This document shows, piece by piece, positions 2,487-51,462 of a DNA stretch of 64,000 bases. This DNA comes from a phage. Each line of letters opens with the position of its first letter. Position 1 is the stretch's first letter. Position numbers and translations under genes: made by a program. A model generated the notes under the pieces. The model was not told the DNA's origin and ran no database searches. It was given only the letters and a program-made list of their open reading frames with translations. The stretch lies in NCBI GenBank assembly GCA_020241125.1, contig GCA_020241125.1_4708.1; one strand, given 5' to 3'.

Positions 2487-2517
2487 GATTGAAATCTCGC
2501 TGGCTTACTTCACTTAA

Positions 2518-2534
2518 GTAATATAGCCGTGAAA
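2518..2534 (-). promoter_or_regulatory. candidate phage early promoter (minus-strand TTTCACGGCTATATTAC)
   Basis: Exact 17-mer repeated at 15116-15132; contains TATATTAC; 32 nt upstream of the start at 2486. Confidence 0.45.
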
Positions 2535-14984: not shown

Positions 14985-15064
14985 TTAAAAAGTTCCTCTG
15001 TTTCACGTTAATTAAACAACGTATTGATTTCTATTTGACAGAATACGAACATCGTACGTATCTA

Positions 15065-15078
15065 TCACTTAGGTAACG
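15065..15078 (-). promoter_or_regulatory. TTACCTARGTGA motif, degenerate copy
   Basis: TCACTTAGGTAACG resembles the exact 16-mer found at 43272-43287 and 51447-51462. Confidence 0.3.
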
Positions 15079-15115
15079 CTTACGCGTCGCGTTCATGATA
15101 CCATGCATCATGAAG

Positions 15116-15132
15116 GTAATATAGCCGTGAAA
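15116..15132 (-). promoter_or_regulatory. candidate phage early promoter, second exact copy
   Basis: Identical 17-mer GTAATATAGCCGTGAAA (plus strand) upstream of the leftward small-gene cluster. Confidence 0.45.
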
Positions 15133-15367
15133 GGATTTGTGTTAACGCAAGGGTTTTGTTTGTTTTTTAAGAAGGGATGGATTTAGAAGAGGTGTTTCAA
15201 GGAAGGTAAACGAGAATAGGTATTTTGATTTAAGTAAGATGTTATCTGTATCCGTTAGAAGTGTATTGTCTAAGTTATCTTGTTTATCTTAGGTTTAATC
15301 GTTTTTATCTTGGTATGTTTAAGTTGTTTTTATTTAACTGTTAAAATGCTTATCTTCAAAACAATGG

Positions 15368-15422
15368 ATAACATGTGTTTACTACGCTCGTTGAGTTATA
15401 ACTCAACGGTAACACATGTCAT
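15368..15422. repeat. nested palindrome
   Basis: Perfect 20-bp palindrome CGTTGAGTTATAACTCAACG (15389-15408) flanked by inverted arms AACATGTGTT and AACACATGT. Confidence 0.6.
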
Positions 15423-15811
15423 CTGTGCATTACACTACGTTACATGCTAGTTAAATCGGATAACTCAAAAAAACATTTGTGATACTCTTCTTCACGTTGT
15501 TCATCAGAGTATCTCGTCTATACTCATTGCATTCGTATACGACATAACCGTTACACGCTAACGCTACGCTTATAGCTTGATAACTCTAAGGATAAAAACA
15601 TAAACTCGCTTCGCTCGTTTAGTTTTTCTTTTTCTTAGAGTTATCCTGTTGCTCGTCTCTAAAGGACTTCGCTCCTCCCCCGTCCCCCGAAGGGGCCGAG
15701 GTCGTGGAAATTTTACTTTCCAAATACATTTACAACATCTGTAAACTTTTACTCCAGGTACTTAATCTTATCATTAGAAATTATAAAAGAGAAAATAAAC
15801 ACAAACATAAA

Positions 15812-15846
15812 CCTTCCCCCGACCCGTAAGGGAAGGAGGAAGGGAG
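15812..15846 (-). terminator. conserved hairpin, family copy 3
   Basis: CCTTCCCCCGACCC-GTAA-GGGAAGGAGGAAGGG, 9 nt 3' of the stop of 15855-16748. Confidence 0.65.
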
Positions 15847-15854
15847 AGATTAAA

Positions 15855-16748
15855 TTATTCGGAAACGTTATAACCGAATACTGCTTTACCGTAGGTGTGA
15901 GTACCGTCAGCTAACGACAGCACCAACACATGGTTGTATGTAGCGTTAACGCCTTTATCGGTAGACCCGGTGGTAGCACCGTTATAGACAAAGGTAGCTG
16001 TTTGCAGATTGGTTTTCAGTTCATTGATGATATCATCACTTACACCAGTCTGTTCTTTAATCAGGGTGGTCAGGTTACCCGCTAAGCCTGCATCGATCTT
16101 GGTATCGTTACTGGTAATAGCTTGTAAACCTGCGGTGTAAGTACTGAAGTCTAACGGATAGGTTAACAGACGTGCTGAGGTCTTGGTACCATCGCCTTCA
16201 TCAACGTAGGTTAAGTTACCCAGATTGGTAACCTTGATGATGTTAGCCAGATCCAGCGTGGTGTTATAAACTTTAACTTGAACAGAGCCATACCACGCCA
16301 ACGAATCTTCTTTGGCTTCCAGGGTGATCGTCTGGATACCATGCTGGTCGAAGGTAACCGGCGTAGCTAACGTTTCGGCTTTGATGTCTTTCGCTTTATC
16401 CAGGAACTTCTCACCGGAAGGCGTGATCATACCGTAGCGTTGAGCTACAAGGTCAACCACATCACCGATGGTGGTGTTCGCCTCAACGTTAACACGTACA
16501 GCGATCTTCTGGAACCACTTAGCCAGATCCAGACGATGGTAGGTGACATCTCGGTTATTGAAGTAAGGGGTACCTTCACCAGGACTAAGTGTTAAAGTTG
16601 CTTCTGGAGCAGAAGGATTCTTTTCTTTAAGGACGTATTTAAGGTCGGTATATTTAAAGCTGGCACCAGTGTCAGCGTTAAGCTGGTTGATCTCATCAAC
16701 GATAAGTTGCCAAGGTGTTTTTAAAGTAAGCGATACTTGAGCAGTCAT
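15855..16748 (-). CDS. abundant (codon-optimised) protein, member of a six-gene paralog family
   Basis: ORF 15855-17024; ATG 16748 with GAGGAA RBS; strong host-like codon bias; motifs YHRLDLAKWF and LAWYGSV shared with 27809-31428 genes; followed by conserved hairpin 15812-15846. Confidence 0.8.
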   Translation of the reverse strand: MTAQVSLTLKTPWQLIVDEINQLNADTGASFKYTDLKYVLKEKNPSAPEATLTLSPGEGTPYFNNRDVTYHRLDLAKWFQKIAVRVNVEANTTIGDVVDLVAQRYGMITPSGEKFLDKAKDIKAETLATPVTFDQHGIQTITLEAKEDSLAWYGSVQVKVYNTTLDLANIIKVTNLGNLTYVDEGDGTKTSARLLTYPLDFSTYTAGLQAITSNDTKIDAGLAGNLTTLIKEQTGVSDDIINELKTNLQTATFVYNGATTGSTDKGVNATYNHVLVLSLADGTHTYGKAVFGYNVSE

Positions 16749-16887: not shown

Positions 16888-17433
16888 ATGTCTACTTTAG
16901 ACTTTAACAAAGCAGCGAAATCCCTTCTGCTTGATCTTATTAACACCAAAGCGACCCGCACATTGGCTGAAGAAGAACTGCAGTTCGGTACTCCGCAGGA
17001 ATCTTCCGAACATGAAAAGAACACCGTTATTCAGCTGGACGCGGCGGCTGAAGCAGCTAACCTGCAGGGTACTCAGCAGTTCTACTACGATCGTCTGGCT
17101 CTGTCTGACGTTTTCGCTGATGTAACTGGTGATGTTACTTTCGAACTGCCGCACGGTACTGACAGCATTCAGGCTTCTGAGCTGGTAAGCAAGCTGGTCA
17201 CCAAATTCGGTCTGGCTTCCCTGAATGGTGAAATCAGAGAAGAAACCTTCCAGCTGTCTGCCGGTACTGTTGGTGAGGTAATTCTGAATGCGATCGAGGG
17301 TGGCCTGGTATACACTGGTACTCTGCGAGTTGCCCTGACCTACGCACTGGCACCAAAAGACGAACTGGCAACCGTTCTGGCGAATAACGTAGCTGAAGGT
17401 TTCGAGAAACCGACCGTTAGCGTTGTTGGCTAA
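16888..17433 (+). CDS. abundant (codon-optimised) protein, paralog-family member
   Basis: ORF 16825-17433; ATG 16888 follows AGAGGA; strong codon bias; QFYYDRLALSDVF motif; divergent from 15855-16748. Confidence 0.75.
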   Translation: MSTLDFNKAAKSLLLDLINTKATRTLAEEELQFGTPQESSEHEKNTVIQLDAAAEAANLQGTQQFYYDRLALSDVFADVTGDVTFELPHGTDSIQASELVSKLVTKFGLASLNGEIREETFQLSAGTVGEVILNAIEGGLVYTGTLRVALTYALAPKDELATVLANNVAEGFEKPTVSVVG

Positions 17434-20551: not shown

Positions 20552-23149
20552 TTATAACGTGACTGTACCTAATTTGGTTGTCTTATTGAGATTAATGACT
20601 GAGATCTGGGTATCGCTGGTCGTGATGGTGCCGATATTAACGCGCTGTCCTTTATCATCCTCTTGCTTGTGGATGGTTAATTCCAGCTCTAACTGGTTAC
20701 CATTAGGAACAACGGAAACGTACCATGTTTTATTACCTGGTGAGCTATTATAGTCTTTTAGGTTATAATGGCCTTTAGGTAAGGTCATGGCCTTACCAGC
20801 AAACAAACATGAAATATCCTCGTTGATATAAACGTCGAAACCGGAAGAAGCGATGACTGTTGAGGCCATTATTCGAGACGCGACGATACCACGATTATAG
20901 TCGTCGATTGTGGTACCTATGACATTGAATACTTGCCCCCCGTTACCCATAATGGTCGATTCGCTAGTGTTTACGTAGCCGATACCCCAAGTCGGATGAA
21001 TGTTCCAGCGGTACCCACTGTTTTGTAAATATGTATACAAGTCTTCATAGGCCGCATTCACCCAACTACCATCACTTTTTCGTCCAGCCCTAAATTGGAA
21101 TGTATTGCTATTTCCAGATGTTCCTCGGCCAAGAGGGACATGTCCCGCCACTAACCAACCATCTGTACTTTGCATATACGCGAACGAACCGTACGCTCTG
21201 TTATCGGCCCAAATATTCACGGTATCAACACGTTCAACGTAGGCGATCACCTTTTGTACGCCGGTTATAGCGATCGAACCCTTGCGTGCCGACACACTAA
21301 CTTCAGCAATTACGACACCCATTTTCCGCTGGCTGCTGTTAAATCCCAATACAACCATTAAACACGGTGCGTTTGTTGTTTCTGGAGGAATCGTTATCGA
21401 TTGTTTCCAGTCGGTGATTCCGCTGAGTTTTGTTCCAGTATATGCGTTCCAGACGGTTTGTCCAGCCGATTTCAGATTCTGTTCAGAAATAGAAATGGCC
21501 TCGCCCTCAGGGATTAACGTGTCGTAATTGAGACCAATGTTGCTGGATAGACGAAGGTCGTTTAAGTAAGATCCGCTGAGTGTGACGTTACCGTTACGAT
21601 AAATTGTCAAGAATGGCGCAGCCAGGGAGTTTAATACCGTAAAGTTACTCGATGGCATGAAACCATAGACATCGATGCCATTACCGTGGTAATGGTAGTT
21701 TGTCCAACTACCTTGATAACTTACGGTACGTGCATCGTAGTGGCCTTGTCCAAGACCGCTGCTGGATAACGTGTATATCTTGGTTGCTGATAGAAATGCG
21801 AGATATCCATGCGCTGCCAGAGCTCCAACTACCCTGTCTTTTATCTTTAACCAAGCTGAAGTATACAACGTACTGTCGGGATTCATTTTGGCTATTTCAT
21901 CGTAAGCTGTGCCTGCGAAGTTTCCGATAGTGTACGTACGTATATCCGGCTGTCCGTTATTGTCGTTCTGTACAGCAATTACTTGCCCAGAATCATTGAT
22001 ATCGATATTACCGATACAGTTGTGAGCCCCCCACACCCAATATCCATCTTTATAATTGGATTCTCCTTGTGTAAATGTCGACGGTCCTCGCCACGCGATG
22101 CCGTTCGATTCGGCGTAGTAGGTAGCTTGTCCCGATCCTGGATTCATGGCGTATCTGTTATTGGTCGGGTCAAAATCGATGTAAAAATGATGCATTCCTT
22201 GACGTTGACGGTTGTCCCGATCATTTGTCCACCACGACGAACCGACCAGAATTCGCGCCTTACCATTTTTTACAGTGGACCATAAACGTATTGCGGCGCG
22301 CCAGACGATTTGACCGATCCCGTTGGACGGGAAACTATTCGTACTGATGCTGTTGCAGACAACGAGCTCGCTGCTGTTGTTTATTTGAGTCCCTTCAATT
22401 GTAACGCCGTTTATGTTAGTAATCAGTGTTGCCGATACACTACCCCCTGTAGGGGCGATAGAGGAACGTTGAACGGTGTAAATTTTTAGTGATAATTTAT
22501 AGCCGCTCCGAATAGCTATACCAATGTAAATAGTTCCATTAATTTCCCAACAACAAACATCGGGCATTGTTTCTTTGAAATCGGATAAAGCACCGTCGAT
22601 ATACATCGCAACGTGTTTGCTGGCGTCGAATGTGCCGTCCGTTAACGCGATGAACATTTTGGCATTATTACCGTTGATATCAGCCGCTAATCCGAGTAGT
22701 ATGTTGTTCTGATGACAGTAAATGGCTTTAGGCGCTAGATCCAACATAGCTGGTTGGTACTGTCGGCTTGTTGGTATTACGCTAGTAACTGCGCCATTTT
22801 GATCCGTTTTACAAATAACGTAATATACACCGTGTATGATGCTGTTTGTCGCTGACCTCAGTAGGACGATCGTCCCGTCAGATTCACGACATATACCGTA
22901 ATGACGATAGTCGGTGATTAAACCGATAGCGCCATCGGCCGAACCTTCGATTGCCAGAGGAAAATAACTTTGGTCCCCAACCTGTTCGATATCGGTTGCG
23001 CCGATATCGATGTATTTTTCCATCTCAGTGTTGAACTCAGCGGTACTGTAGGCACCGAGATCGCTCGCCTTTAGTCCCGTTGGGTTGTCACGACTGGCGA
23101 TACGTGTAGTAACGCTACTCACCAGTTCGCTGAACTTTTTCATTGCCAT
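20552..23149 (-). CDS. tail fibre or tailspike (865 aa)
   Basis: N-terminus MAMKKFSELVSSVTTRIASRDNP is shared with the two small downstream genes (adaptor-like); long beta-rich, G/N/S/T-rich body; GAGGTG RBS. Confidence 0.7.
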   Translation of the reverse strand: MAMKKFSELVSSVTTRIASRDNPTGLKASDLGAYSTAEFNTEMEKYIDIGATDIEQVGDQSYFPLAIEGSADGAIGLITDYRHYGICRESDGTIVLLRSATNSIIHGVYYVICKTDQNGAVTSVIPTSRQYQPAMLDLAPKAIYCHQNNILLGLAADINGNNAKMFIALTDGTFDASKHVAMYIDGALSDFKETMPDVCCWEINGTIYIGIAIRSGYKLSLKIYTVQRSSIAPTGGSVSATLITNINGVTIEGTQINNSSELVVCNSISTNSFPSNGIGQIVWRAAIRLWSTVKNGKARILVGSSWWTNDRDNRQRQGMHHFYIDFDPTNNRYAMNPGSGQATYYAESNGIAWRGPSTFTQGESNYKDGYWVWGAHNCIGNIDINDSGQVIAVQNDNNGQPDIRTYTIGNFAGTAYDEIAKMNPDSTLYTSAWLKIKDRVVGALAAHGYLAFLSATKIYTLSSSGLGQGHYDARTVSYQGSWTNYHYHGNGIDVYGFMPSSNFTVLNSLAAPFLTIYRNGNVTLSGSYLNDLRLSSNIGLNYDTLIPEGEAISISEQNLKSAGQTVWNAYTGTKLSGITDWKQSITIPPETTNAPCLMVVLGFNSSQRKMGVVIAEVSVSARKGSIAITGVQKVIAYVERVDTVNIWADNRAYGSFAYMQSTDGWLVAGHVPLGRGTSGNSNTFQFRAGRKSDGSWVNAAYEDLYTYLQNSGYRWNIHPTWGIGYVNTSESTIMGNGGQVFNVIGTTIDDYNRGIVASRIMASTVIASSGFDVYINEDISCLFAGKAMTLPKGHYNLKDYNSSPGNKTWYVSVVPNGNQLELELTIHKQEDDKGQRVNIGTITTSDTQISVINLNKTTKLGTVTL

Positions 23150-39849: not shown

Positions 39850-41646
39850 TCAATCGATTATGTCGTGATCGTTAATTTCTACAATTTCTTCATCGAATCG
39901 ACCGACGTCTTTCTTCAAGCCTGCATTGGTTGCTGCAACGTCATTTGCAATTTGTGGGGTAATGATTAACCGACCGCGCTCATCGATAGGTGCGTACATA
40001 CTGAACTTCTGACGTCCGGTTGGTTCGGAGTGTGGAAGATTCAGATAGCTTGCACAGAACGGGATGGAACCACTAACCAAACGACTCTCGTCAGCCAATG
40101 CAGCACCGCCTGCGTTTTGGCTCTGGAGAACAACATGCGTGCTCACTTTGAACAGCATGCAATCACCTGGTGACTGAATCGATGTTGCCACTTTCTCACG
40201 TTTATCACGATTGCTCTGGATATTGAGAATCGCTTCCGTTGCAACTTGATTTCGCAACGCCTTCTGTACATCGCGATTGGTCATCTCTTTACGGTTGTTC
40301 TGTCGTTTACCACGTTCTGTGGTTTTAAGATGGAACCCCAGTTTAAAGATGCTCTTACGCACATCCTCCATGACATATTCCAACACCATCAATTCCTTAC
40401 CGAACATCGTCGTGGTATCAACACGACTCATTTCGATAGTGACATTGTCAATCAGATACGCCATAAATTCGTAGAAGTCGTCGCAAGGAATATTTTCCTG
40501 TTTGAACTTCTTCTGCTGAATCTCGTCAACGTAAAGATCGAGACTGTCGATGTGGTGATTTACATCACGTAACAAACGCGCATCCGCGTTGTTGTTATTA
40601 AAGATAATCAAACCGAGTAATGTACGCCAATGGTCTGGCGCATTCGCGAACTCCTCAACCGGATAGTCTTCCGGAAAACGATCGTAATAACGGTCGATGA
40701 GATACAAGAATGCACCGACAAGGCCAAGAACAATACGTTCCGTGCCTCCGCGTCTTACAGCAATTTGAATATCAGGATGTTTGTAACGTACAGCGCTAGC
40801 GCTACGGCTTTTACCGCTTTTGCTGATACTAAAGCCTTTAGGAATAACCCCCATGGTGCGATAGATTACCCATTGGTCACGCGGAAAATCGCGTTCAGCA
40901 AGGTTCCGTCCGGTTACGGCTTCGACACCTGCAAAACGTCGGAAACACTCACCCACCCCATACTTCGCAAAGAGATAGTGACCCAGTGTGGTTACGCTGG
41001 TGTGGTTGATGTTGTCACCGTTCACTTTACTTTGTTTAGTAAGATGGTAGATTTGCGACCAGGGTAACGACAGGTAATGACGATAATCGATACCGGTCGG
41101 TGTATCATTGCTCAGGAACTGATACGGTGTACGTTTAACCGTGATTTTGTCACGCGGAAGCATGATGAACGCCATGTCTTTCGTGTAACTGATTACCGGG
41201 TCAGCGAGCACTGCACTGAGAATGAAGTTCGCACCACGTAGACGCATTTTACCACCCTGACCTACCGCGGGTAATAGGAGAGGATGTCGGATAATGCAGT
41301 AGTCCTTTCCGGGTTCACGACGGTCACCTGATTCCATCGCGCCGTACCAGCGGAATTCTAGCATCACCATAAACACATCGGATGGCGCAAGGTCGAAGGT
41401 CAGCTTACCGCTATCCTTCCCTTTGGTTTTCTTTCCTCCGCTTAAGTAGTGGAACTGTTCGCGGGCCATACAGCGACGCAGGCCATGATACACCAGATCC
41501 TTAGGTAAACTATCTTTGCTGTTCCGCCAAAGACGATCAACATAGGACTCAACATCTTGCATCTTATCGACGACGATGTTGCGTGCTATCTTCTCGTTCA
41601 TCTTCGGTGCAAGCCCAGCGACAGCTTTGCAGAATCTAGGATCCAT
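39850..41646 (-). CDS. hypothetical virion-module protein (598 aa)
   Basis: ORF 39850-41649 begins with GTG; ATG 41646 with AAGGAG RBS. Confidence 0.75.
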   Translation of the reverse strand: MDPRFCKAVAGLAPKMNEKIARNIVVDKMQDVESYVDRLWRNSKDSLPKDLVYHGLRRCMAREQFHYLSGGKKTKGKDSGKLTFDLAPSDVFMVMLEFRWYGAMESGDRREPGKDYCIIRHPLLLPAVGQGGKMRLRGANFILSAVLADPVISYTKDMAFIMLPRDKITVKRTPYQFLSNDTPTGIDYRHYLSLPWSQIYHLTKQSKVNGDNINHTSVTTLGHYLFAKYGVGECFRRFAGVEAVTGRNLAERDFPRDQWVIYRTMGVIPKGFSISKSGKSRSASAVRYKHPDIQIAVRRGGTERIVLGLVGAFLYLIDRYYDRFPEDYPVEEFANAPDHWRTLLGLIIFNNNNADARLLRDVNHHIDSLDLYVDEIQQKKFKQENIPCDDFYEFMAYLIDNVTIEMSRVDTTTMFGKELMVLEYVMEDVRKSIFKLGFHLKTTERGKRQNNRKEMTNRDVQKALRNQVATEAILNIQSNRDKREKVATSIQSPGDCMLFKVSTHVVLQSQNAGGAALADESRLVSGSIPFCASYLNLPHSEPTGRQKFSMYAPIDERGRLIITPQIANDVAATNAGLKKDVGRFDEEIVEINDHDIID

Positions 41647-41685
41647 CACACACTCCTTTCAGAAAGTTGCTTAAGCAGATTAAAG

Positions 41686-43128
41686 TTACTTTTTCGATGA
41701 CACTTTCTCAAGAATCTTGAAAAAGGTCATACCTATACCGACAACGGCCGCGGTTATGCTCGCAGCGGCTTTCCAAACATCGACGTTACGTTGACGTCGC
41801 GCTTCTTCCGCTTCACGTTGTCTTTTTGCCTCTTCATCACGTCGACGTATCTCAGCAGCAAACTCGTCGTGCTTACGTTTGGATTCTTCGTCTCGACGAC
41901 GAAGTTCAGCGACGAATTCTTCATGTTTGCGTTTAGCCTCGTCGTCACGACGTTTTAAATCAGCTTGATAATCTTCGTGTATTTGTCTACGTAGATCATC
42001 TTGACGCTTCATTTCGGCTTGGTGTTGTTCCATCCTACGTTTTTGTTCGTCTTTAAGCTGATCGAGTTCGGCTTTATGTTGTTCATCACGCAGCTTTGCG
42101 TCGGCGCGATGCGCCTCATGCATCTGTGCGATAACTGCCTTGTGTTCATCCGCCATACGTCGCATTTCAGCCATCACCCCTTTAAGGGTTTCTTCTGATG
42201 CCTTACGTTCGTAGCTACGTTGGTCGAAATCATTTTTGTAGGCTTCTTTTTGGATGGGGTCGCGCCAATGCAATGCCGATTCACGTGTCGGAAAAACATT
42301 GTACTTCCACATCTCTTTTTCCAAATCTTCGACCGGTACGAAGATGGAGTCATTATTCCCGAAGGTAACCAACATACCTGGCGCGCCTGCTCCATTCGTT
42401 GGTTTTATTTCGAACGCTTTCCCCAACACGTTAACCCATAAGCTATACGGATTATGAAAGTCGGGCGGCGTCCAATGGATAGTGAGTTGCGTTCCGAGAA
42501 TCCGGAAACCCTCTGTTTTTCCCGTCAAGCTCCGCGCGCACGTTGCGATGTAGGGGTGATCAATCCCTTTCGTAACGTGGTCTGCGCTTTTGTATTCTCC
42601 TTTAACTTTTACGATTGCCACGTTGATTTGCGCGACATAAGCGGGTTGATTAAAGTTCAGCGTGTTGAGGTCAATTTGACATATCTCATCCAGCGTATCG
42701 TACCAGTCTTGCTGGTCTAATAGACGCGGCATTTTCTCAGCGTTAACAATACGACGGATATGCGGTTTCCTTATCGCGTAACCTGTACCGTTTTTAACAC
42801 GGAGTATATCCCGACGTCTACCCGCGTAGACGAAGTTTCTGAATGCACCATTCGCATTAGATACGTCATGGCTGTCAACTATTACAGGACTACGAAATTT
42901 TGAACGTCGTACGATCCTGAATGTATTGCCGTCCTCAACCCTACCAGGAATGTACTGGAACATATTGTCGGAGGTGATAACCAACACGGTATGGCCAGAT
43001 TCATTAATACATGCCCATCCTAATTCCAGGTCATATAACGGTTCAGCATAACCGTCAATGCGATAAGCGTGCGTACCATCCCACGGTTCGAACGCGGTAT
43101 CACATATTGGCATGGAGGGCATCGTCAA
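41686..43128 (-). CDS. protein with C-terminal charged coiled-coil repeats and terminal TM helix (480 aa)
   Basis: GGAGG RBS; C-terminus has RRRDEEAKRKHEEF-type repeats then AAASITAAVVGIGMTFF. Confidence 0.75.
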   Translation of the reverse strand: MTMPSMPICDTAFEPWDGTHAYRIDGYAEPLYDLELGWACINESGHTVLVITSDNMFQYIPGRVEDGNTFRIVRRSKFRSPVIVDSHDVSNANGAFRNFVYAGRRRDILRVKNGTGYAIRKPHIRRIVNAEKMPRLLDQQDWYDTLDEICQIDLNTLNFNQPAYVAQINVAIVKVKGEYKSADHVTKGIDHPYIATCARSLTGKTEGFRILGTQLTIHWTPPDFHNPYSLWVNVLGKAFEIKPTNGAGAPGMLVTFGNNDSIFVPVEDLEKEMWKYNVFPTRESALHWRDPIQKEAYKNDFDQRSYERKASEETLKGVMAEMRRMADEHKAVIAQMHEAHRADAKLRDEQHKAELDQLKDEQKRRMEQHQAEMKRQDDLRRQIHEDYQADLKRRDDEAKRKHEEFVAELRRRDEESKRKHDEFAAEIRRRDEEAKRQREAEEARRQRNVDVWKAAASITAAVVGIGMTFFKILEKVSSKK

Positions 43129-43271
43129 CCTCCATCAGATTGAAAACTATCACGCATAATACATTTCCCTTTTCTTGTTCTTATCGAGCCGACAGCCGAC
43201 GGTTTCAGCATCGTTCCTAGCGCGAGAACGACCTTACGTGTTGTCTATGCCTTATTCATCGCAGGCGTCTG

Positions 43272-43287
43272 TCACCTAGGTAATGTA
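43272..43287 (-). promoter_or_regulatory. conserved 16-mer TCACCTAGGTAATGTA (candidate promoter or operator)
   Basis: Exact repeat of 51447-51462; about 145 nt upstream of the start at 43128, just after a family hairpin. Confidence 0.4.
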
Positions 43288-43330
43288 AGCGTCAAATTTT
43301 TTCTATTCGCAACAATAAACGGCATAGAAA

Positions 43331-43360
43331 CCTCCCCCAACCCTTGCGGGCTGAGGGAGG
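43331..43360 (-). terminator. conserved hairpin, family copy 6 (variant loop), 3' of the capsid candidate
   Basis: CCTCCC-CCAA-CCC-TTGC-GGG-CTGA-GGGAGG. Confidence 0.6.
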
Positions 43361-43459
43361 CTGACTTATGTATCACGGTGCCGGATGAATGTCCGGTGCA
43401 ATGAAACCATCCGCAACGTTGTCGTCAAGAATATCATCCAACGAAGCAGCTACGGTAGT

Positions 43460-45682
43460 TCAGTTAGTCTGAACAGGCAGCTTGATGTTTTCAGTGTAGA
43501 CCTTACGCAGGTTCACAACGTTAATCAGACCCAGCAGCGGGCAGTTGTTAACGAAGCGGCAGCGCGGCTGAACCATGGTTTCTTTAGAAACCTGACCGTT
43601 ACGGGTAACCTGAGCAACAGATACCAGTTCCGGTACATACAGGAACATACCGAAGGTCAGCGGATCCGGAGAACCCTGGATACCACGAGACAGGGTCACG
43701 AAGATCTTATCGCGCAGCATGACGTTCGGGTTATCTACAACTACGAAGTTGAAGCTTACACCAACGGTACGGAAATCACCATCGGTCTGCAGGAACTGCG
43801 GGATGTAGTTGTCAGTTGCTACTACGCAACGCGGTTTCTCATCAGCGTTGGAAGACAGCAGCTGCAGAGCTGGCTGATAACCAGACTCGGAGTACATGCG
43901 GTATGCCATCTCACGAATCACGTTCATGATCGCAGCAGACACTTCAGCACGACGTTCTGCAGTGGTGGTACCCTGAACAGATTTCTCCAGGTCCAGATTG
44001 ATTTCTTCGAACCACGGACGGATCAGGTAACGACCGAAACCTTCGATCTGGATGTCACCGAACTGACGGAAGCGAGAGGTCGCAACCGCTTTCAGTGCGT
44101 CTTTGTAGCTGAACAGTTTCTCAACCATCAGGTTGTCGAAACGTGCGTTAGCAGCTTGGATCAGAACGTCCAGGTCAGCAGCGTTTTCTTCCCAATCCAG
44201 CGGACGAGGAATGGAGAACGGAGCCAGCAGGCCGATTGCGTAACGTTCTTGCTTCATGTTGAAGTCAAGGTGCTTACCGCGCTCACGACGGTTGCTGTTG
44301 TTACGGCGGATACGCAGTTCGTAACCAACCAGTTTGAAGCTCAGGTCTTCAGCCAGTTGTTTGAACTCTTCGCTCTTACGCGGTTGTTCGATGTTGTCCT
44401 GATCAACCAGGCGATACAGTTCAGCGTTAGCGCCGTTAACACGCAGACCGGCTTTCTCTACGTTGGAAGAACCGTAAACTTCGATCGCCAGCTGAGCAGC
44501 AGATTTCGCATCGATGATGTCCTGCAGCGCTTCAGCTTTCGCGCCTTTAACGTCTTTGGTGTTCTCATCAACGAAGATGGAGTGGGTGTCGAACGCCAGG
44601 GTCATTTTGCGGAAGTCGCCTTCCAGGGATTTCTGGAAACCGTTGGTGATCAGACCAGATACGTCGAACGGTACGTAAGAGGTTTTGCTGTGCTTGGTAG
44701 ATTTGATTTCCACCAGGATTTTGGTCAGCGTGATCTGGGCGTCCAGCGCGTCGGTGTTGTCGCTGTAACCGTTAGCCAGGATGCTATCGTCTTCAGCAAT
44801 ACCGATCATGTCGATCAGTTTATCAACAGCCAGGTAAGACGTTTTGTAAGTTACGCCTTTAATTTCGATGTCGCGCGGAGCAACGATAGCTTTGTCAACG
44901 AAGTACTGTGCGTTAGCATCGTCAGCACGATAGATCGGATGCAGATCGGTCACGTCGTTGGACAGAACGTCGTTGTACATGAACGCATCCAGCAGCGGAC
45001 GACGTACCCAATCAGCCGGAGTACCGTCAGCGTTACGACGCAGGTGGTTGAACACCAGCGGACGACGGAAAGATACGTCGTAACCGATCTGGTTCGGAGC
45101 CAGAACGATGGTGTTGTACAGTTCGTTACCCATGCGGCTCAGACGAGAAGCCTTCACGTTGAACACAACGGAGTACGGCATCATGTCACGCAGTTCTTTC
45201 TGGTCGTAGGACAGCTGAACCAGTTCTTCAGATTCGCAACCGCAGGAATCAGCAGCCATCATGACGAAGTTAGAGCTGTCAACTTCACGGCCAGACGGAG
45301 TGGTGCTGATGTTCATGGAACGTGCTTGTTTAGCATATTCTACCGGGTTACCATGAGCCAGCATGATCAGTGCTGCTGCACGAGCCTGCTGTGCGTTCAT
45401 GGTGAACAGCTGTTCTTCAATACGCTGCTTCTCTTCCGGAGTGGTGGTTTCGAAGCCCAGCATGGACAGAACCGGTTCTTCGGCTTTACGGATGTCGCTG
45501 CTGAAGCTCTTAACATCCATTTCGTTAACCAGTTTGTCCATGGATTTGAAATCAACCTTAGAAGCAGATTCCATAGACAGGAAGGTGTTCTCCAGACCTT
45601 TGTCTGCTGGTTTGCTACCATTAGCGGTCAGGAACTGGCGAGTGGCCGCGACCTGTTGGCTAAGAAGGGTTTTATCATTCAT
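43460..45682 (-). CDS. candidate major capsid protein (740 aa)
   Basis: Strongest codon optimisation in the window, so the plus-strand ORF 43385-45685 is an antisense shadow; AAAGGA RBS; size fits jumbo-phage capsid proteins (recollection, not verified). Confidence 0.6.
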   Translation of the reverse strand: MNDKTLLSQQVAATRQFLTANGSKPADKGLENTFLSMESASKVDFKSMDKLVNEMDVKSFSSDIRKAEEPVLSMLGFETTTPEEKQRIEEQLFTMNAQQARAAALIMLAHGNPVEYAKQARSMNISTTPSGREVDSSNFVMMAADSCGCESEELVQLSYDQKELRDMMPYSVVFNVKASRLSRMGNELYNTIVLAPNQIGYDVSFRRPLVFNHLRRNADGTPADWVRRPLLDAFMYNDVLSNDVTDLHPIYRADDANAQYFVDKAIVAPRDIEIKGVTYKTSYLAVDKLIDMIGIAEDDSILANGYSDNTDALDAQITLTKILVEIKSTKHSKTSYVPFDVSGLITNGFQKSLEGDFRKMTLAFDTHSIFVDENTKDVKGAKAEALQDIIDAKSAAQLAIEVYGSSNVEKAGLRVNGANAELYRLVDQDNIEQPRKSEEFKQLAEDLSFKLVGYELRIRRNNSNRRERGKHLDFNMKQERYAIGLLAPFSIPRPLDWEENAADLDVLIQAANARFDNLMVEKLFSYKDALKAVATSRFRQFGDIQIEGFGRYLIRPWFEEINLDLEKSVQGTTTAERRAEVSAAIMNVIREMAYRMYSESGYQPALQLLSSNADEKPRCVVATDNYIPQFLQTDGDFRTVGVSFNFVVVDNPNVMLRDKIFVTLSRGIQGSPDPLTFGMFLYVPELVSVAQVTRNGQVSKETMVQPRCRFVNNCPLLGLINVVNLRKVYTENIKLPVQTN

Positions 45683-45831
45683 TGAAAGTATCCTTTACAG
45701 AATTAACTTATATAAGTCGGTCGATAGACCATAGCGTACACGCGTGCATGCGCCACTATAGTATCAGTAAACACTTACCGTTATTGAGGTCGTGATACAA
45801 CACTAAAAATGCCGCATAACTTTTCCCTACG

Positions 45832-46452
45832 TCACAAACGACGCAGGCGATAATGGATGGAACGATTGGTGCAATATGAACGGAACAGCGGCAATTGCGC
45901 AACTTCCGCAAGACTCATATTAATTCGCAGGTGTTCAATAACGGCGCTGTAGTTATCAGCAATACGATCGCTCAATAACTCTTCTGCCAATAAAGGAAGA
46001 CAATCGACAACAATCGCGATCACATCCTCATTAACATAACGCACCCGAACACTCAACGGACGTTTGTCTGGGCTGTAAGTTGGATCCGCCAAACGACGTT
46101 CAATATCACGCGGATAGCTCGTCAGTAAATGGTAATAACCATTGTCATAACGATTGATGTACTCACACAGCACATCAACATTCTTCTCTGGCGGCAAACC
46201 TGTTTCGTCATAGTGATACGCAAACATACCACCAAGCAGGTTGTTAAGATGAACCGCAGGGTTCGCTTGTTCGTGTTCTTTCGTGATGAAGAAAGGCACG
46301 TTCTGGGCTGCGAAATAAAAACCTACATCATTGGGCGATAGTATGCCGAAAAGACTTTTAGGGTCTAATAACACCTGTAAGTCATCACGCGCATTTCGAA
46401 TAATCGCGTGTTCTACCCAATTCGGAACGACGAGATATCGGAGTTCCTTCAT
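45832..46452 (-). CDS. hypothetical protein (206 aa)
   Basis: ATG 46452 with AGAGG RBS; immediately upstream of the capsid candidate. Confidence 0.65.
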   Translation of the reverse strand: MKELRYLVVPNWVEHAIIRNARDDLQVLLDPKSLFGILSPNDVGFYFAAQNVPFFITKEHEQANPAVHLNNLLGGMFAYHYDETGLPPEKNVDVLCEYINRYDNGYYHLLTSYPRDIERRLADPTYSPDKRPLSVRVRYVNEDVIAIVVDCLPLLAEELLSDRIADNYSAVIEHLRINMSLAEVAQLPLFRSYCTNRSIHYRLRRL

Positions 46453-46491
46453 TATGATTACCTCTTTGCAAGTATCGAAAGGATTGAGTCG

Positions 46492-48102
46492 ATGGACCCA
46501 AAACAGATAGCCATTAAGATTATTACGTTACTGTTTCGTAATGCACAATTGAACCATCCCGATCCCAGTACGATCGAACATGTTAAATCCGTCTTAGATA
46601 AAGTCGAACCCCCGAAAAACCATCTCGCTACAGACGTAGATAGAGAGGTTTTCAACAACCTGATGAATACCATTCATTGGATGTTGGAACAACCATTATC
46701 GGAACCTTTCGATAAACAACAGTTGTTACAAAGGATACGTTTGGATTGCCTTGAACAAAGCAATCTTTACGAGATTCTTGCCGACGGACTGTACGATATC
46801 GAAGACGACGCTCATATCAGTAAGGTCTGTTCACTCTATTACAACGAATTACGTAATCTGATTACCCGTCGTCGTGTTTTCGAAACCTTTAGAAACACGT
46901 ACATGGATATCAGTAACGGGCGACTTGGGGATAAAGAATTTTTCGATGCAATGGCGAATCTGAAATTATCGCTAGACAGTATCGAAATGGATACCGAAAA
47001 TCCCGAAGAGATGTCGTGTATGATTGACGGCTTTATCGCTGACAGCGAAGACGATATCGAGAAAGTCGAACGTATGTTCGTCAAAGCGATGGAACGTAAC
47101 AGTCCTGAAGGTGGATTTGTAACCGGCTGGCAAGGCTTTAATAAAATGTTGGGGTCGGTCGGTGTTTTACGTCGCGGTACCTTAGGACTGATTGGTGCAA
47201 TGCAGCACCGGAACAAGTCAGGCGTGTTGTTAAAACTGTTCACACATCTGGCATTGTACAACAAACCCCATTTCTTTTTCCCGGAGCGAGCAAAGAAAGC
47301 ATTACTGATTCATTTGTCGACAGAAAACGAAGTGGAAGAAAACACGCTTCAGATATACAAGAACATGCGAGAACAGGAAACAGGCGAATATGTCGATATT
47401 CGTAAGATTGACCCTCGCGAGGCATCACGTTATGTGTTGAAGGTGTTCAACGATGCGGGTTTCTCTGTTTGTATGCGTCGTGTTGATGGGATGAGTTATA
47501 AACAACTCGCTAATCTCATCGACCATTTCGAACGCATGGGTTATGAAGTCATGGCGTTGTTCATTGACTATCTGAAAATGTTCTCATCGGAAGGGCTGGA
47601 TAGAAATGGACCGACCGGCGCATGGCTCCAAGAACTCTTCAACAAAGTCCGTAACCTCTGCAGTGTTAAACGTATTTTAGGCATGACCGTACACCAGCTG
47701 TCATCCGATGCGAAGATGCGTGCACGTGATGGCAACGATGAAGAGTTTGTTGACCAAGTCGCAGGTTTAAGTTACTGGGATGGTTGTAAAGGGATTGACC
47801 GTGAGATTGACCTTGAAGTGATTGTTGATATCGTTAAGGAACCGGGCAAACGTCAAAGCTGGCAAGTCTTTGCATTAGGGAAAGACCGTCAACCGGATAA
47901 CGGTTCAACGAAACCTGAAGACAAACACTTCGCAATGCCATTCCAAACCATCGGGATGCTTCCTGATGATTACGGTAAGAAAGCAGTGTATTGCCGCAAG
48001 GTTGGCGGACAACCTGTCTCCGAGGGAGGTAAAGGTCCGTGGAACAAGTTCGATGAAAACGCAGCACCGAGTAATGAATTACAATTTGATTTAGAATTTT
48101 AA
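46492..48102 (+). CDS. possible DnaB-like (SF4, RecA-fold) helicase
   Basis: ALFIDYLKMF resembles DnaB H2/Walker B (hhhhDYLQLM); degenerate Walker A-like LIGAMQHRNKSG; QLSSDAKMRAR resembles the H3 region; start taken at ATG 46492 (ORF opens at 46408). Confidence 0.45.
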   Translation: MDPKQIAIKIITLLFRNAQLNHPDPSTIEHVKSVLDKVEPPKNHLATDVDREVFNNLMNTIHWMLEQPLSEPFDKQQLLQRIRLDCLEQSNLYEILADGLYDIEDDAHISKVCSLYYNELRNLITRRRVFETFRNTYMDISNGRLGDKEFFDAMANLKLSLDSIEMDTENPEEMSCMIDGFIADSEDDIEKVERMFVKAMERNSPEGGFVTGWQGFNKMLGSVGVLRRGTLGLIGAMQHRNKSGVLLKLFTHLALYNKPHFFFPERAKKALLIHLSTENEVEENTLQIYKNMREQETGEYVDIRKIDPREASRYVLKVFNDAGFSVCMRRVDGMSYKQLANLIDHFERMGYEVMALFIDYLKMFSSEGLDRNGPTGAWLQELFNKVRNLCSVKRILGMTVHQLSSDAKMRARDGNDEEFVDQVAGLSYWDGCKGIDREIDLEVIVDIVKEPGKRQSWQVFALGKDRQPDNGSTKPEDKHFAMPFQTIGMLPDDYGKKAVYCRKVGGQPVSEGGKGPWNKFDENAAPSNELQFDLEF

Positions 48103-48106
48103 ACGC

Positions 48107-48163
48107 AAAAAAAAAAAAAGATTGTGCGGTTCCCTCCTCCAACCCGTAAGGGAAGGAGGAGGG
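48107..48163. terminator. conserved hairpin, family copy 7, with A13/T13 run
   Basis: CCCTCCTCC-AACCC-GTAA-GGG-AA-GGAGGAGGG (48132-48163) plus A13 at 48107-48119; between convergent genes. Confidence 0.75.
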
Positions 48164-48179
48164 GTTATGACCGCTTTGA

Positions 48180-48506
48180 TTAACTTATTGTCATGAATTC
48201 ATTAGGTGAAAATTTCCAGCCGTTCTCGGTGAGAAGCGTGTTGAGTTTCGCTGCAACGATAAGCCATGCGTGCATGGCTGTTACATCGTATTGGCGATTC
48301 ACTCGACGTTGGTTTTCGATATTGATTTGCTCCTGTTCAGTGATGTTTGGATAAAGTGCGATAGCGCTAGGTTTACCCAGCGCGCTAGTCATCACCGCCG
48401 TACATTCACTGATAATGTTGTTTAAGTGGTAGTTATACACCGTTCCACGCATGACGCGATGACGGCATTCGATAATAGCGTCGTAAATGATTTCTCGAGT
48501 AATCAT
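48180..48506 (-). CDS. hypothetical protein (108 aa)
   Basis: Intact ORF; followed by conserved hairpin 48132-48163 and T13 run. Confidence 0.55.
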   Translation of the reverse strand: MITREIIYDAIIECRHRVMRGTVYNYHLNNIISECTAVMTSALGKPSAIALYPNITEQEQINIENQRRVNRQYDVTAMHAWLIVAAKLNTLLTENGWKFSPNEFMTIS

Positions 48507-48512
48507 GATAAT

Positions 48513-48914
48513 TTAAAACATACGGTCGTTTTTAGCACGGGCGTCCATTACCAGATCGTAGATGCCTGCGGTTCGTAAGCACTCTTCGTAGTAACGATGT
48601 GTGCCTTCCTCAGCCATCCACGATAACCCTCGGCTATCCGCAACGATAACCAGTTTGTTATTGTTGAACGCACACACCACACGGTATGTCGCGTTGTTAT
48701 TCGGATCGCGAGTGATGAGTTCATAGACGCCGTTAACAGGTTTACTGAATTCGCCGTTTAACGGAACGAGTTCGGTAGTACCTTCAGCAAACGTTACGTT
48801 GATCGGTGATGGATCTTTAGCGATAACAGTATATTCCACATTGTGTTCTTTACTGGTCATAATACCGAAGTAAGAACTCACAGGGGAACGCGGTACACTA
48901 AGAATATTAAACAT
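48513..48914 (-). CDS. hypothetical protein (133 aa)
   Basis: ATG 48914 with AGAGGA RBS. Confidence 0.6.
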   Translation of the reverse strand: MFNILSVPRSPVSSYFGIMTSKEHNVEYTVIAKDPSPINVTFAEGTTELVPLNGEFSKPVNGVYELITRDPNNNATYRVVCAFNNNKLVIVADSRGLSWMAEEGTHRYYEECLRTAGIYDLVMDARAKNDRMF

Positions 48915-48984
48915 AAATGTTGTCCTCTTAATTGGATTTAGATTGTTGGGTATGTGATTGGGAAATGAAAACGTTGTTTCGGTT

Positions 48985-49554
48985 TTAGACGATGAGTGAC
49001 CAGGTAGTAAGCACCCCGCTTGCGAATTCGAGCTTAAGACGTTTACCGATAAGTTGTTGCTGGATCATCTTCTCGGTGATACGTCGATCATGCTGAACCG
49101 CTTTATCAAACGCTTCTTTCGCTTCAGCTTGGTAGAAGTTCGTTTCTTCGTTTTCGTCGATCTCTTCGAGAGCATCGTCGTCGATGTCAGCAAGTTTCAC
49201 TCGACCGTTTTCATCAGGTTGTTCTGCAGGTTCATTGTCATACGGCGTGTCTTTTGTTGGTGCGACACGATGTTGCAACTCGACCTGCGTTAACATGATC
49301 TCCATCTCACCATCGATAGGAATGATTTCATCGGCGCTGCCGTTTTCGGTCAACTCTCGACTTTCCAGTAATGTCGTCGTAACAGAGAACACCTCTTCAA
49401 CAGGAACCTCATCATCGTCGATAGTGTTAACCGTATTGCTGGTAACTTCGGCAACGACCATCAAATCGAATGCGTGAGGATCGCCTGGCATTTTGATTCC
49501 TGGAAGTTTGTTGAGGTACCAAGGATCGAGAATCATGATTTCTGGATTGAACAT
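48985..49554 (-). CDS. acidic hypothetical protein (189 aa)
   Basis: Intact ORF, strongly D/E-rich. Confidence 0.6.
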   Translation of the reverse strand: MFNPEIMILDPWYLNKLPGIKMPGDPHAFDLMVVAEVTSNTVNTIDDDEVPVEEVFSVTTTLLESRELTENGSADEIIPIDGEMEIMLTQVELQHRVAPTKDTPYDNEPAEQPDENGRVKLADIDDDALEEIDENEETNFYQAEAKEAFDKAVQHDRRITEKMIQQQLIGKRLKLEFASGVLTTWSLIV

Positions 49555-49629
49555 CGTTTTTACCTTTCTATGTTAGGTGGGTTGCGGATAGAAGAATCAA
49601 TGCATAGACTGATTTAAGTTTGTTAAGGT

Positions 49630-50532
49630 TTACTTAGTCTTCGAGTTACAAGGACTGACATGTTGTTGTACTCGTTGAATCGTATCGTAGTACGGGTTAG
49701 ATTGGTTGAACATGCTGTTGTGTGGATGATAGCCGTATGGCGCATTTTGCCTTGTTGATGAGAAACCTTGTTGAGAAGGACGATTTGAATTAACCGCGAG
49801 TACGTAGTAAACCAAATTTTGACGGTCGAACGTTCCTTCGTTTTTGAAGGTGTCGGCGTAGGTGTTTATCGCTGGAGCGAGTCTATCACCATCGGCGGTA
49901 ATAATTGTACCGTCTGGGTAAACTTCACGAACGACGCACCATGTTCCGATAAGAACGTCTTTGGGCGGCGTATTGCCGTATCCGGTTGTAACGGTAAGGT
50001 AAGTATCGAACCCTTCAGAACAACAAGGATGACGATAGATAGGTCCTGTCATTTCCGTTCTATCGGTATCGTCGCATTTCTCTATCGAGAGCGATGGTGT
50101 GTCGGTTTTGAAATTGTCAAATTCTTTCTTTAAGTCGATTACAGGTTCTTTCGTATAGTACTTCTTGATTGCTTTGACGTAAAGATCAGGAACGGTTGTC
50201 AGCATTCCGTTATACCTGATTCTCAGGTTTTCGAGTAATCCAAAGATACTCGCGCATGCTTGTTCGCGAGGTTTTGTAAGATAAGAGATCCCCCCAGGAA
50301 CGCTGGGATCTTTGAGAAAGAAGATTGCGTTATTGTCGTTGTGCAGTGCGTTGAAGAAAACGATTGATTCGATATATACGGAGCATAGGCTGTCGTTGGC
50401 GTCGTCAGATAACACCCAGATGCACTCATCGGTCGTCTTGTTTAAAAGTTCTGTTTTGTCCACCAAACGTTGTTTCATTGCGAGGAAATGTGCCTGTTGT
50501 TCAGCGGATAATTCACGATAAATAGTGGTCAT
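49630..50532 (-). CDS. hypothetical protein, tandem paralog of 50618-51391
   Basis: ORF 49630-50610; ATG 50532 with AAGGAG RBS; IYRHPCCSEGFDTYLTVTTGYG ... VREVYPDGTII aligns with IYIHPECHTTYDRYLTITGG ... IREIYPDGRIV. Confidence 0.7.
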   Translation of the reverse strand: MTTIYRELSAEQQAHFLAMKQRLVDKTELLNKTTDECIWVLSDDANDSLCSVYIESIVFFNALHNDNNAIFFLKDPSVPGGISYLTKPREQACASIFGLLENLRIRYNGMLTTVPDLYVKAIKKYYTKEPVIDLKKEFDNFKTDTPSLSIEKCDDTDRTEMTGPIYRHPCCSEGFDTYLTVTTGYGNTPPKDVLIGTWCVVREVYPDGTIITADGDRLAPAINTYADTFKNEGTFDRQNLVYYVLAVNSNRPSQQGFSSTRQNAPYGYHPHNSMFNQSNPYYDTIQRVQQHVSPCNSKTK

Positions 50533-50617
50533 GTTGAGCTCCTTGATTACGATAAGGATGATTGCGGTTTTGTGATGCTGGTAGGGCCCTAAACAAAGGA
50601 GCCCTACCAATATTGGG

Positions 50618-51391
50618 TTACTCAGGATCGGCGTAGAAATGGTGAGGATAGCCGGAGTACGATCCCGCGTTACCGGCTATGGATTCTTTCTGGGAATCGA
50701 CGACGAGCGCATAGAACTGTCGGGAATTTGTTAGCGTTGAGAAATAAGCGGAAAGGACTTTTTCATTCAACGCATCGCAAGGTAGACAGGTGCGACCGCA
50801 AAACGTCACGATACGGCCGTCGGGATAGATCTCACGAATCATTCTCCACTCACCGATATCCACTGGTGATGGCGCTGCTACACCACCTGTTATCGTTAAG
50901 TAACGATCGTACGTGGTATGGCATTCAGGATGAATATAGATCGGCTTGTTCGTTTCGACAGGTTCCGAAGTATCTCGACGACTAAGAAGCTCAACGACTT
51001 CAAGATAAATCGTTGGTAGATCGCGGAGAATACCGGTGCTACGACGTTTCTTTGTGATTCGCGGACGAATCTCGTTGAGAGCGTATTCGAGCTTACGTTC
51101 AGCTTCGTACGCATCGAGTTTTATCAGGCGACCCGGTTCATCGGAATGATCCTGAGTTACGTAAACGAAATACGCGTTGCCTTTTGCAGCGTGAAAGATT
51201 CGAGCGACCTTAAATGTTTCTACGGTACGATACCCAAGGCGCGATTGATTTTCCACAGGAGAAAATATCCAATGTCGTCCTTCGTCCGCCTCAACAATTT
51301 CGTTGAAACTATCCGTTTGTTCTGGGACCTGGTAGTCAGCCATTAATGTATCAAGAGCGTCGTCAGCCAGTTTGATGTAAATATCTGTCAT
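50618..51391 (-). CDS. hypothetical protein, tandem paralog of 49630-50532
   Basis: ORF 50618-51604; ATG 51391 with GAGGAT RBS; promoter-like motif and inverted repeat just upstream. Confidence 0.7.
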   Translation of the reverse strand: MTDIYIKLADDALDTLMADYQVPEQTDSFNEIVEADEGRHWIFSPVENQSRLGYRTVETFKVARIFHAAKGNAYFVYVTQDHSDEPGRLIKLDAYEAERKLEYALNEIRPRITKKRRSTGILRDLPTIYLEVVELLSRRDTSEPVETNKPIYIHPECHTTYDRYLTITGGVAAPSPVDIGEWRMIREIYPDGRIVTFCGRTCLPCDALNEKVLSAYFSTLTNSRQFYALVVDSQKESIAGNAGSYSGYPHHFYADPE

Positions 51392-51424: not shown

Positions 51425-51462
51425 GTGATAACAGTAACCGTTGTTATCACCTAGGTAATGTA
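51425..51462 (-). promoter_or_regulatory. conserved 16-mer plus adjacent 9-bp inverted repeat
   Basis: GTGATAACA-n8-TGTTATCAC (51425-51450) overlapping TCACCTAGGTAATGTA (51447-51462); about 35-70 nt upstream of ATG 51391. Confidence 0.4.

Follow-up and report, generated by a model that had tools for sequence, protein, structure and literature searches.

A codon-adapted gene for a phiKZ gp120-family major capsid protein in a Goslar-like jumbo phage, and the antisense reading frame that shadows it

Introduction

The virion of the Escherichia jumbo phage vB_EcoM_Goslar (Goslar) has been analysed by cryo-electron microscopy at 3.6 A in a 2026 preprint, which assigned the major capsid protein to gp41 (10.64898/2026.04.21.720040). 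According to this work, a shell with T=27 (h=3, k=3) and a diameter of ~147 nm has gp41 in both its hexons and its pentons; the protein is present in 1,615 copies per capsid, shows the canonical HK97 fold, divided into an N-arm, the domains P, A and I (insertion) and a C-arm, and is 25.8% identical to the capsid protein of phiKZ (10.64898/2026.04.21.720040). Here, we report on a stretch of phage DNA of 64,000 nucleotides (contig GCA_020241125.1_4708.1), referred to as the window throughout, and on a gene located at positions 43460..45682 of its minus strand. We hold with very high confidence that the 740-aa product of this gene is the major capsid protein of a Goslar-like jumbo phage, and that its codon bias stems from high expression.

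In the Goslar reconstruction, 583 of the 740 residues of gp41 were modelled in the hexon and 576 of the 740 in the penton; the 157 N-terminal residues lack density, and modelling begins at S158 (10.64898/2026.04.21.720040). Virion mass spectrometry used gp41 as the copy-number standard, and a fusion of gp41 to the green fluorescent protein was seen to surround the phage nucleus and, at later times, to occupy bouquets (10.64898/2026.04.21.720040). In phiKZ, the head protease gp175 cuts the capsid protein after Glu163, ahead of Asn164 (PMC11297242). The gene described here, its structure and its role are already known from the Goslar homologue.

Results

Family and identity of the 740-residue product

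43460..45682, minus strand: major capsid protein gene, homologue of Goslar gp41, with an ATG start, 740 codons and a TGA stop (open reading frame with Pfam, PHROG, PDB and Goslar matches)

The original prediction, made from the letters of the DNA without database searches, had named this product a candidate major capsid protein and had proposed its comparison with the phiKZ gp120 family. Both the assignment and the proposed kinship are borne out. The product matches the Pfam family PF25620 (PhiKZ_MCP, 'Bacteriophage PhiKZ major capsid protein gp120') over the full length of the profile (residues 98-731 on profile positions 2-635 of 635), with an E-value of 5e-218 and a score of 725.7 bits against a curated cut-off of 27. 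It likewise matches PHROG 3231, 'major head protein' (E 1.5e-164). In the Pfam scan at E <= 1, no match to other capsid families (T4 gp23-type, HK97 gp5-type, P22, lambda gpE) was found, and the sole hit besides PhiKZ_MCP was one unrelated, sub-threshold repeat.

Comparison with solved structures leads to the same protein. Chain 11bt_Ar of the PDB, 'Major capsid protein', is identical to the window product at 738 of 740 residues (99.7%), and further matches are present in entries 11fg, 11mk and 11ml. Among solved chains, 8bfl, 'Major head protein' (E 6e-62), and phiKZ gp120 itself (8y6v; E 7.2e-56, residues 56-731 against 63-735) are more remote relatives. A tblastn comparison with PHIKZ120 yielded 25.7% identity (E 1e-44), and a multiple alignment 25%. 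When the protein was compared by tblastn with 50,697 phage records, 230 records matched; every one is from a phage, in most cases from a jumbo phage of Pseudomonas, Erwinia, Salmonella, Serratia or Ralstonia. Identity above 60% was reached only by Goslar (two records, 99.7%), in which the gene lies at 43442-45661. This Goslar counterpart is Goslar_00041 / HOV27_gp041, annotated as 'hypothetical protein' in GenBank MK327938 and as 'major head protein' in RefSeq NC_048170. Taken at the level of sequence, these matches establish both the family membership and the identity of the capsid protein.

Structure and predicted maturation

Two parts of the protein can be distinguished by comparison with the 583-residue PDB chain 36za_A0, which is 100% identical to residues 158-740.

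45212..45682, minus strand: predicted N-terminal propeptide region, codons 1-157, without counterpart in the mature capsid chain 36za_A0
43463..45211, minus strand: mature HK97-fold shell subunit, codons 158-740 (N-arm, P, A and insertion domains, C-arm), by identity to 36za_A0

The only substitutions between the window protein and that of Goslar, S73T and M74L (S73 and M74 here, T73 and L74 in Goslar), both fall within codons 1-157. As phiKZ-like phages carry paralogous families of head proteins, the product might be conceived as a paralogue with another role, for instance that of a scaffold, a decoration or an inner-body protein, rather than as the shell subunit. We consider this vanishingly improbable: residues 158-740 are identical to a chain of which a solved entry, under the name 'Major capsid protein', contains 1,365 modelled copies, the preprint places gp41 in hexons and pentons (10.64898/2026.04.21.720040), and the Goslar record contains a single place that matches the capsid protein. 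The HK97 fold with its insertion domain can be carried over to the window protein from the identical solved chain, and the role of the principal shell component in this phage would follow by extension from Goslar.

An alignment of five capsid sequences (window, phiKZ, 201phi2-1, RTH11, FLC4-4C) positions the E163|N164 cleavage site of phiKZ at E152/E153 of the window protein, five to six residues ahead of S158, the first modelled residue. A maturation pathway can be envisaged in which the 740-aa precursor would first assemble into procapsids. Subsequently, ~153-157 N-terminal residues would be removed by a prohead protease as in phiKZ, probably after a Glu residue at positions 150-153, and the resulting 583-aa HK97-fold subunit with its extra insertion domain would form the pentons and hexons of a T=27 shell of ~147 nm with 1,615 copies per virion.

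Comparison with related capsid proteins

The gene shares with Goslar gp41 its genomic position (with an offset of ~21 bp), its neighbours and its extreme codon bias. The relationship to phiKZ gp120, the founder of PF25620, is much more distant (~25-26% identity, and a different host), but the two proteins are similar in length (747 aa in phiKZ, 740 aa here) and both possess the HK97 fold with an insertion domain. The N-terminal propeptide of ~160 residues that is removed from phiKZ gp120 after a Glu residue has its probable analogue in the 157-residue region of the window protein, and the T=27 capsid, as reported for Goslar, constitutes a further likeness to the phiKZ system. The capsid proteins of the Pseudomonas phage 201phi2-1 (gp200), the Xanthomonas phage RTH11 and the Ralstonia phage FLC4-4C, whose hosts and genera differ, belong to the same family; they are 745-756 aa in length and 23-31% identical to the window protein, that of RTH11 being its nearest relative outside Goslar (~31-32%). 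With HK97 gp5-type capsid proteins, the core fold (N-arm, P and A domains) and the assembly into hexons and pentons are held in common (10.64898/2026.04.21.720040), whereas the window protein is about twice as long, bears a large insertion domain where those have the E-loop, and carries a long, presumably cleaved N-terminal region.

Codon bias and virion copy number

The capsid gene draws on a very narrow set of codons: 64 of its 67 Leu codons are CTG, all 35 Phe codons are TTC, 43 of 46 Asn codons are AAC, all 46 Arg codons are CGT or CGC, and all 34 Gly codons are GGT or GGC.

For comparison, 56 Goslar coding sequences were mapped onto the window and each was scored for its codon adaptation index (CAI). 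Two sets of weights were used, the Sharp & Li weights for E. coli and a set computed from E. coli K-12, based on 30 of its genes for ribosomal proteins, EF-Tu and EF-G; the two correlate at r = 0.97. With the Sharp & Li weights, the capsid gene has a CAI of 0.752 and an effective number of codons of 30.1, against ~0.28 and 51 for typical window genes. The claim of the original prediction that this gene has the strongest host-like codon bias in the window holds with the computed weights: its CAI is 0.805, while the remaining genes of the window have 0.363 as their median and do not exceed 0.746 (z = 5.5 for the capsid gene). On this scale, values between 0.56 and 0.84 are found in the reference set, and the median of the gsp and chiA genes, which are weakly expressed, is 0.32. 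The bias extends over the propeptide region (0.752) as well as the mature region (0.819).

The genes that occupy ranks 2-4 after gp41 with the computed weights are the homologues of gp23, gp22 and gp53.

16888-17433, plus strand: high-CAI gp23 homologue (CAI 0.687 from the Goslar-equivalent start at 16888; the automatic mapping had begun at 16963)
15855-16748, minus strand: high-CAI gp22 homologue, by CAI rank
56837-60214, minus strand: high-CAI gp53 homologue, by CAI rank

All three correspond to virion proteins left unmodelled in the Goslar preprint, with ~2,140 copies per virion for gp23, ~580 for gp22 and ~330 for gp53, next to the 1,615 copies of gp41; gp54, gp55 and gp56 are present in ~50-70 copies each (10.64898/2026.04.21.720040). 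The homologues of gp54-gp56 have ordinary CAI values (0.24-0.36, Sharp & Li weights); for gp57, no separate homologue was mapped inside the window. Codon adaptation thus tracks virion copy number in this phage, as the four genes of highest CAI (gp41, gp23, gp22 and gp53) attest. Selection for the efficient translation of abundant proteins on host ribosomes, as is well established for phage structural genes, would produce such a pattern.

We infer that translational selection is the cause of the bias: the demand for capsid protein on the host ribosomes would be so high that synonymous codons are driven to the set used by the most highly expressed genes of E. coli. E. coli-like codon usage might alternatively go back to a transfer of the gene from the host in recent times, or to a local mutational or compositional bias, and the GC content of the gene (0.51) does lie slightly above the window average; the test of synonymous divergence discussed below is indecisive on this point. 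Yet the 230 matching records are all from phages and the family is one of phage capsid proteins, the GC content at third codon positions (0.59) is no higher than that of several unbiased neighbours, and the preferred codons CTG, CGT, GGT, TTC, AAC, ATC and ACC agree with the weights from K-12 ribosomal genes. Moreover, the other high-CAI genes of the window are those of other high-copy virion proteins. Acquisition or composition is therefore very improbable as an explanation, and translational selection is the reading that we prefer. A scan of the whole window for tRNA genes found none, and an Rfam scan of the whole window was likewise without a match, so that there is no phage tRNA in the window to explain the codon usage.

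The antisense reading frame

43385..45685, plus strand: 766-aa antisense 'shadow' open reading frame, a by-product of the capsid codon bias and not a gene

The longest open reading frame at the locus is not that of the capsid protein but this plus-strand frame of 766 aa. Both frames exist as the original prediction had given them. The stop codon of the plus-strand frame (45683-45685) is in phase with the start codon of the minus-strand gene (45680-45682); the two thus run codon against codon, each antisense codon being a sense codon in reverse complement, and the in-register frame is open because TTA, CTA and TCA, the reverse complements of the stop codons, are absent from the capsid gene. The proposal that codon bias created this shadow frame finds quantitative support. 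If the capsid gene followed the mean synonymous usage of the rest of the window's genes, 24.7 TTA, CTA and TCA codons would be expected among its 119 Leu and Ser codons, and none is present (P(0) = 6e-13). In 5,000 codon resamplings at average usage, the longest open antisense run had a mean of 106 codons and never exceeded 288. The remaining two antisense frames contain 26 and 44 stops. The adoption of the codon set of highly expressed E. coli genes, which lacks TTA, CTA and TCA, would thus suffice to leave the in-register frame open across the whole gene.

It is conceivable that the 766-aa frame is a real overlapping antisense gene, or even the true gene in place of the minus-strand frame; besides its length, the equivalent frame in 201phi2-1, RTH11 and FLC4-4C speaks for this, as it has no stops in these phages either. 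The capsid genes of the three likewise lack TTA, CTA and TCA. The openness of the window frame is fully explained by the absence of these three rare codons. The antisense product has neither a Pfam family nor a PHROG match, while the minus-strand product matches a capsid family and a solved structure, and the composition of the antisense product, rich in V, F, R, Q and T, is the mirror image of the codon bias on the sense strand. In Goslar (one stop, from a single TCA that the window gene does not have), L004 (two, from CTA and TCA) and L008 (one, from TCA), three of eight near-identical relatives, synonymous changes in the capsid gene interrupt the frame, and the capsid protein differs there by no more than two substitutions in the propeptide. 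The capsid gene of phiKZ (L010 712-2955) is strongly biased in the opposite direction, and its equivalent antisense frame is not open but contains 47 stops, because 43 leucines are encoded by CTA (only 2% by CTG), a choice contrary to that made in the Goslar-type, 201phi2-1, RTH11 and FLC4-4C genes. An antisense gene is hence extremely improbable, and the 766-aa frame is a shadow of the codon bias.

That TTA, CTA and TCA are avoided completely, both in the window gene and, independently, in the capsid genes of 201phi2-1, RTH11 and FLC4-4C, might conceivably be selected for reasons beyond the speed of translation, a thought that we regard as very improbable. Insensitivity to host defences or stresses that deplete or cleave particular Leu or Ser tRNAs might be such a reason, as might an antisense frame kept open for a product that is made only in some lineages. 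In a milder variant of this thought, codon adaptation would order virion copy number in this phage (gp41, gp23, gp22, gp53) well enough for the sequence to point out further abundant virion proteins that are as yet unmodelled.

Flanking elements

45691..45695, minus strand: Shine-Dalgarno-like AAGGA, 8 nt upstream of the ATG, read from the sequence; putative function
43330..43361, minus strand: hairpin with a 14-bp stem and a GCAA loop, beginning 98 nt downstream of the capsid stop codon

The hairpin likely represents the 3' end of the transcript or a stabiliser thereof. A 66-nt segment comprising it (43320-43385, minus strand) folds with -35.5 kcal/mol (z = -5.3), and none of 200 shuffled sequences folds as well. 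A simple terminator scan of 43000-46000 found nothing, since the U-tract of the hairpin is imperfect; the element was picked up by eye and by folding.

The original prediction had also taken the motif TATATTAC as a pointer to a phiKZ-like lineage. This motif is listed as a predicted phiKZ promoter, next to ...BTATATTACDWHDGTG for 201phi2-1, in Table 2 of PMC7058600. In its exact form, the octamer occurs four times in the window against 1.68 copies expected, a number that 11 of 100 shuffles reach, and none of the copies lies near the capsid gene. We therefore rejected the exact motif as lineage evidence. The looser form ATTACNNNNGTG occurs at chance-level frequency in the window. An extended form, TAYATTACNTARGTG, has three matches in the window against 0.01 expected, an optimistic statistic, as the pattern was chosen after the sites had been seen.

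43273..43287, minus strand: TACATTACCTAGGTG, phiKZ-group early-promoter-like; a context element 42 nt beyond the hairpin, between the capsid gene and the gp040 homologue
51448-51462, minus strand: TACATTACCTAGGTG, early-promoter-like TAYATTACNTARGTG match upstream of the insertion at 49614-51386
2511-2525, minus strand: TATATTACTTAAGTG, 25 nt upstream of the start of the gp004 homologue, with a T-rich tract ahead of it; no other site in the window fits the published early promoter consensus of 201phi2-1 and phiKZ as well

All three sites are intergenic and positioned upstream of minus-strand genes, and their resemblance to the published consensus of 201phi2-1, phiKZ and EL is independent of the post hoc choice of the pattern.

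One of the exact TATATTAC copies (15116-15123, minus strand) falls into the 870 nt that separate the gp021 homologue from that of gp022 (14985-15854), a stretch that has no open reading frame above 56 aa and no match in the Rfam scan; its Goslar equivalent is unannotated.

Neighbouring genes

45832..46452, minus strand: gp042 homologue, predicted inner-capsid vertex-binding-complex protein, directly upstream of the capsid gene and 100% identical to Goslar gp42

Goslar gp42 has been described as a vertex-binding-complex protein and as the homologue of phiKZ gp119 (10.64898/2026.04.21.720040). PHIKZ119 lies directly upstream of PHIKZ120 in phiKZ, just as the gp042 homologue does here, so that, judged by homology, the gp119-gp120 type of gene order is conserved in the window. 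Beyond the gp042 homologue, a divergently oriented gene for a DnaB-like helicase follows on the opposite strand, as in the Xanthomonas phage RTH11. Searches of Pfam and PHROGs returned nothing for the gp040 and gp042 homologues.

The window as part of a Goslar-like genome

Within the window, positions 40000-50000 are 98.2% identical to Goslar over 96% of their length, and the entire window is collinear with positions 43-62280 of the Goslar genome (237,307 bp), apart from a few divergent or inserted stretches; it is thus the left 64 kb of a relative of Goslar that is distinct from Goslar itself. The identical 740-aa sequence occurs in 138 blocks of the public assembly collection, among them ENA metagenomes and three NCBI assemblies in which it sits on a single contig of 237-240 kb. 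An 8.2-kb segment around the gene (40460-48682) is 99.98% identical to contig ABDDKD010000007.1 (238,282 bp) of GCA_020395325.1. The jumbo-phage origin that had been proposed for the DNA is confirmed by this collinearity, by the size of the contigs carrying the identical protein, and by the near-perfect match to one of them. Its assignment to a phiKZ-like lineage stands in the broad sense of the family; with ~26% identity to phiKZ gp120, the lineage proper is instead Goslarvirus (Chimalliviridae), a placement that builds on near-identity to Goslar, which is treated in the literature as a member of the Chimalliviridae. In Goslar, the gene for the chimallin nucleus shell and those for the split multisubunit RNA polymerases map outside the stretch that is equivalent to the 64-kb window.

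Complete Goslar-like genomes are found as single contigs of 237-240 kb not only in ENA metagenomes but also in GCA_020395325.1, GCA_019944695.1 and GCA_020241865.1, assemblies that look like those of bacterial isolates. This hints that Goslar-like lytic jumbo phages may travel with isolates, either in a carrier state or as a contamination.

Several loci of the window depart from Goslar. The gp026 homologue (20552-23149, minus strand) is only 65.5% identical to its Goslar counterpart, and its central 1.4 kb (20852-22285) cannot be aligned as DNA, while the flanking genes are 97-99% identical; the region looks like a swapped module of the host-range or tail-fibre type. Other unusually diverged homologues are those of gp009 (62%), gp021 (60%), gp056 (78%) and gp022/gp023 (89%). 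An insertion of ~1.7 kb relative to Goslar at 49614-51386 contains two paralogous minus-strand open reading frames, 49630-50532 (300 aa) and 50618-51391 (257 aa), which are 30% identical to each other over 153 aa (E 4e-18); neither has a match in Pfam or PHROGs, and the Goslar equivalent is only a 62-aa remnant (gp047). With the early-promoter-like TACATTACCTAGGTG site just upstream, this insertion may be an accessory cassette of early genes.

Discussion

Nothing contradicts the capsid assignment, and its weak points sit in the inferred steps. The following points weigh against the account given above. All experimental data come from Goslar, and the relative studied here has 98.2% DNA identity to it over 40000-49613. 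The position of the propeptide cleavage, probably after one of E150, E152 and E153, is placed by analogy with phiKZ. As to a promoter of its own, the 149-nt spacer upstream of the capsid gene (45683-45831) contains no sigma-70-like site on the coding strand; the sole such site in 43000-46000 lies on the wrong strand and inside the gene. The absence of a sigma-70-like promoter on the coding strand would fit transcription by the phage RNA polymerase, which we infer to transcribe the gene late. Finally, the synonymous divergence (pS) from Goslar is 0.039 for the capsid gene, with 20 synonymous differences, against a median of 0.086 (the gp037 row, a misalignment, was left out), but this value ranks only 7th lowest among 46 genes of a mosaic genome and is not sufficient on its own to prove that codon choice is under selection. 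The low pS of the capsid gene is consistent with constraint, and it is confounded by mosaic recombination.

Since structure, copy number and role have already been published for a 99.7%-identical homologue, the discovery value of our analysis is small, and its use is a practical one. The GenBank record of Goslar still labels the capsid gene as a 'hypothetical protein', and the larger plus-strand open reading frame must stay unannotated as a gene. The identity of the capsid protein fixes the whole window as part of a Goslar-like, nucleus-forming jumbo phage of E. coli. At the same time, the case offers a clean example of codon adaptation that follows virion copy number.

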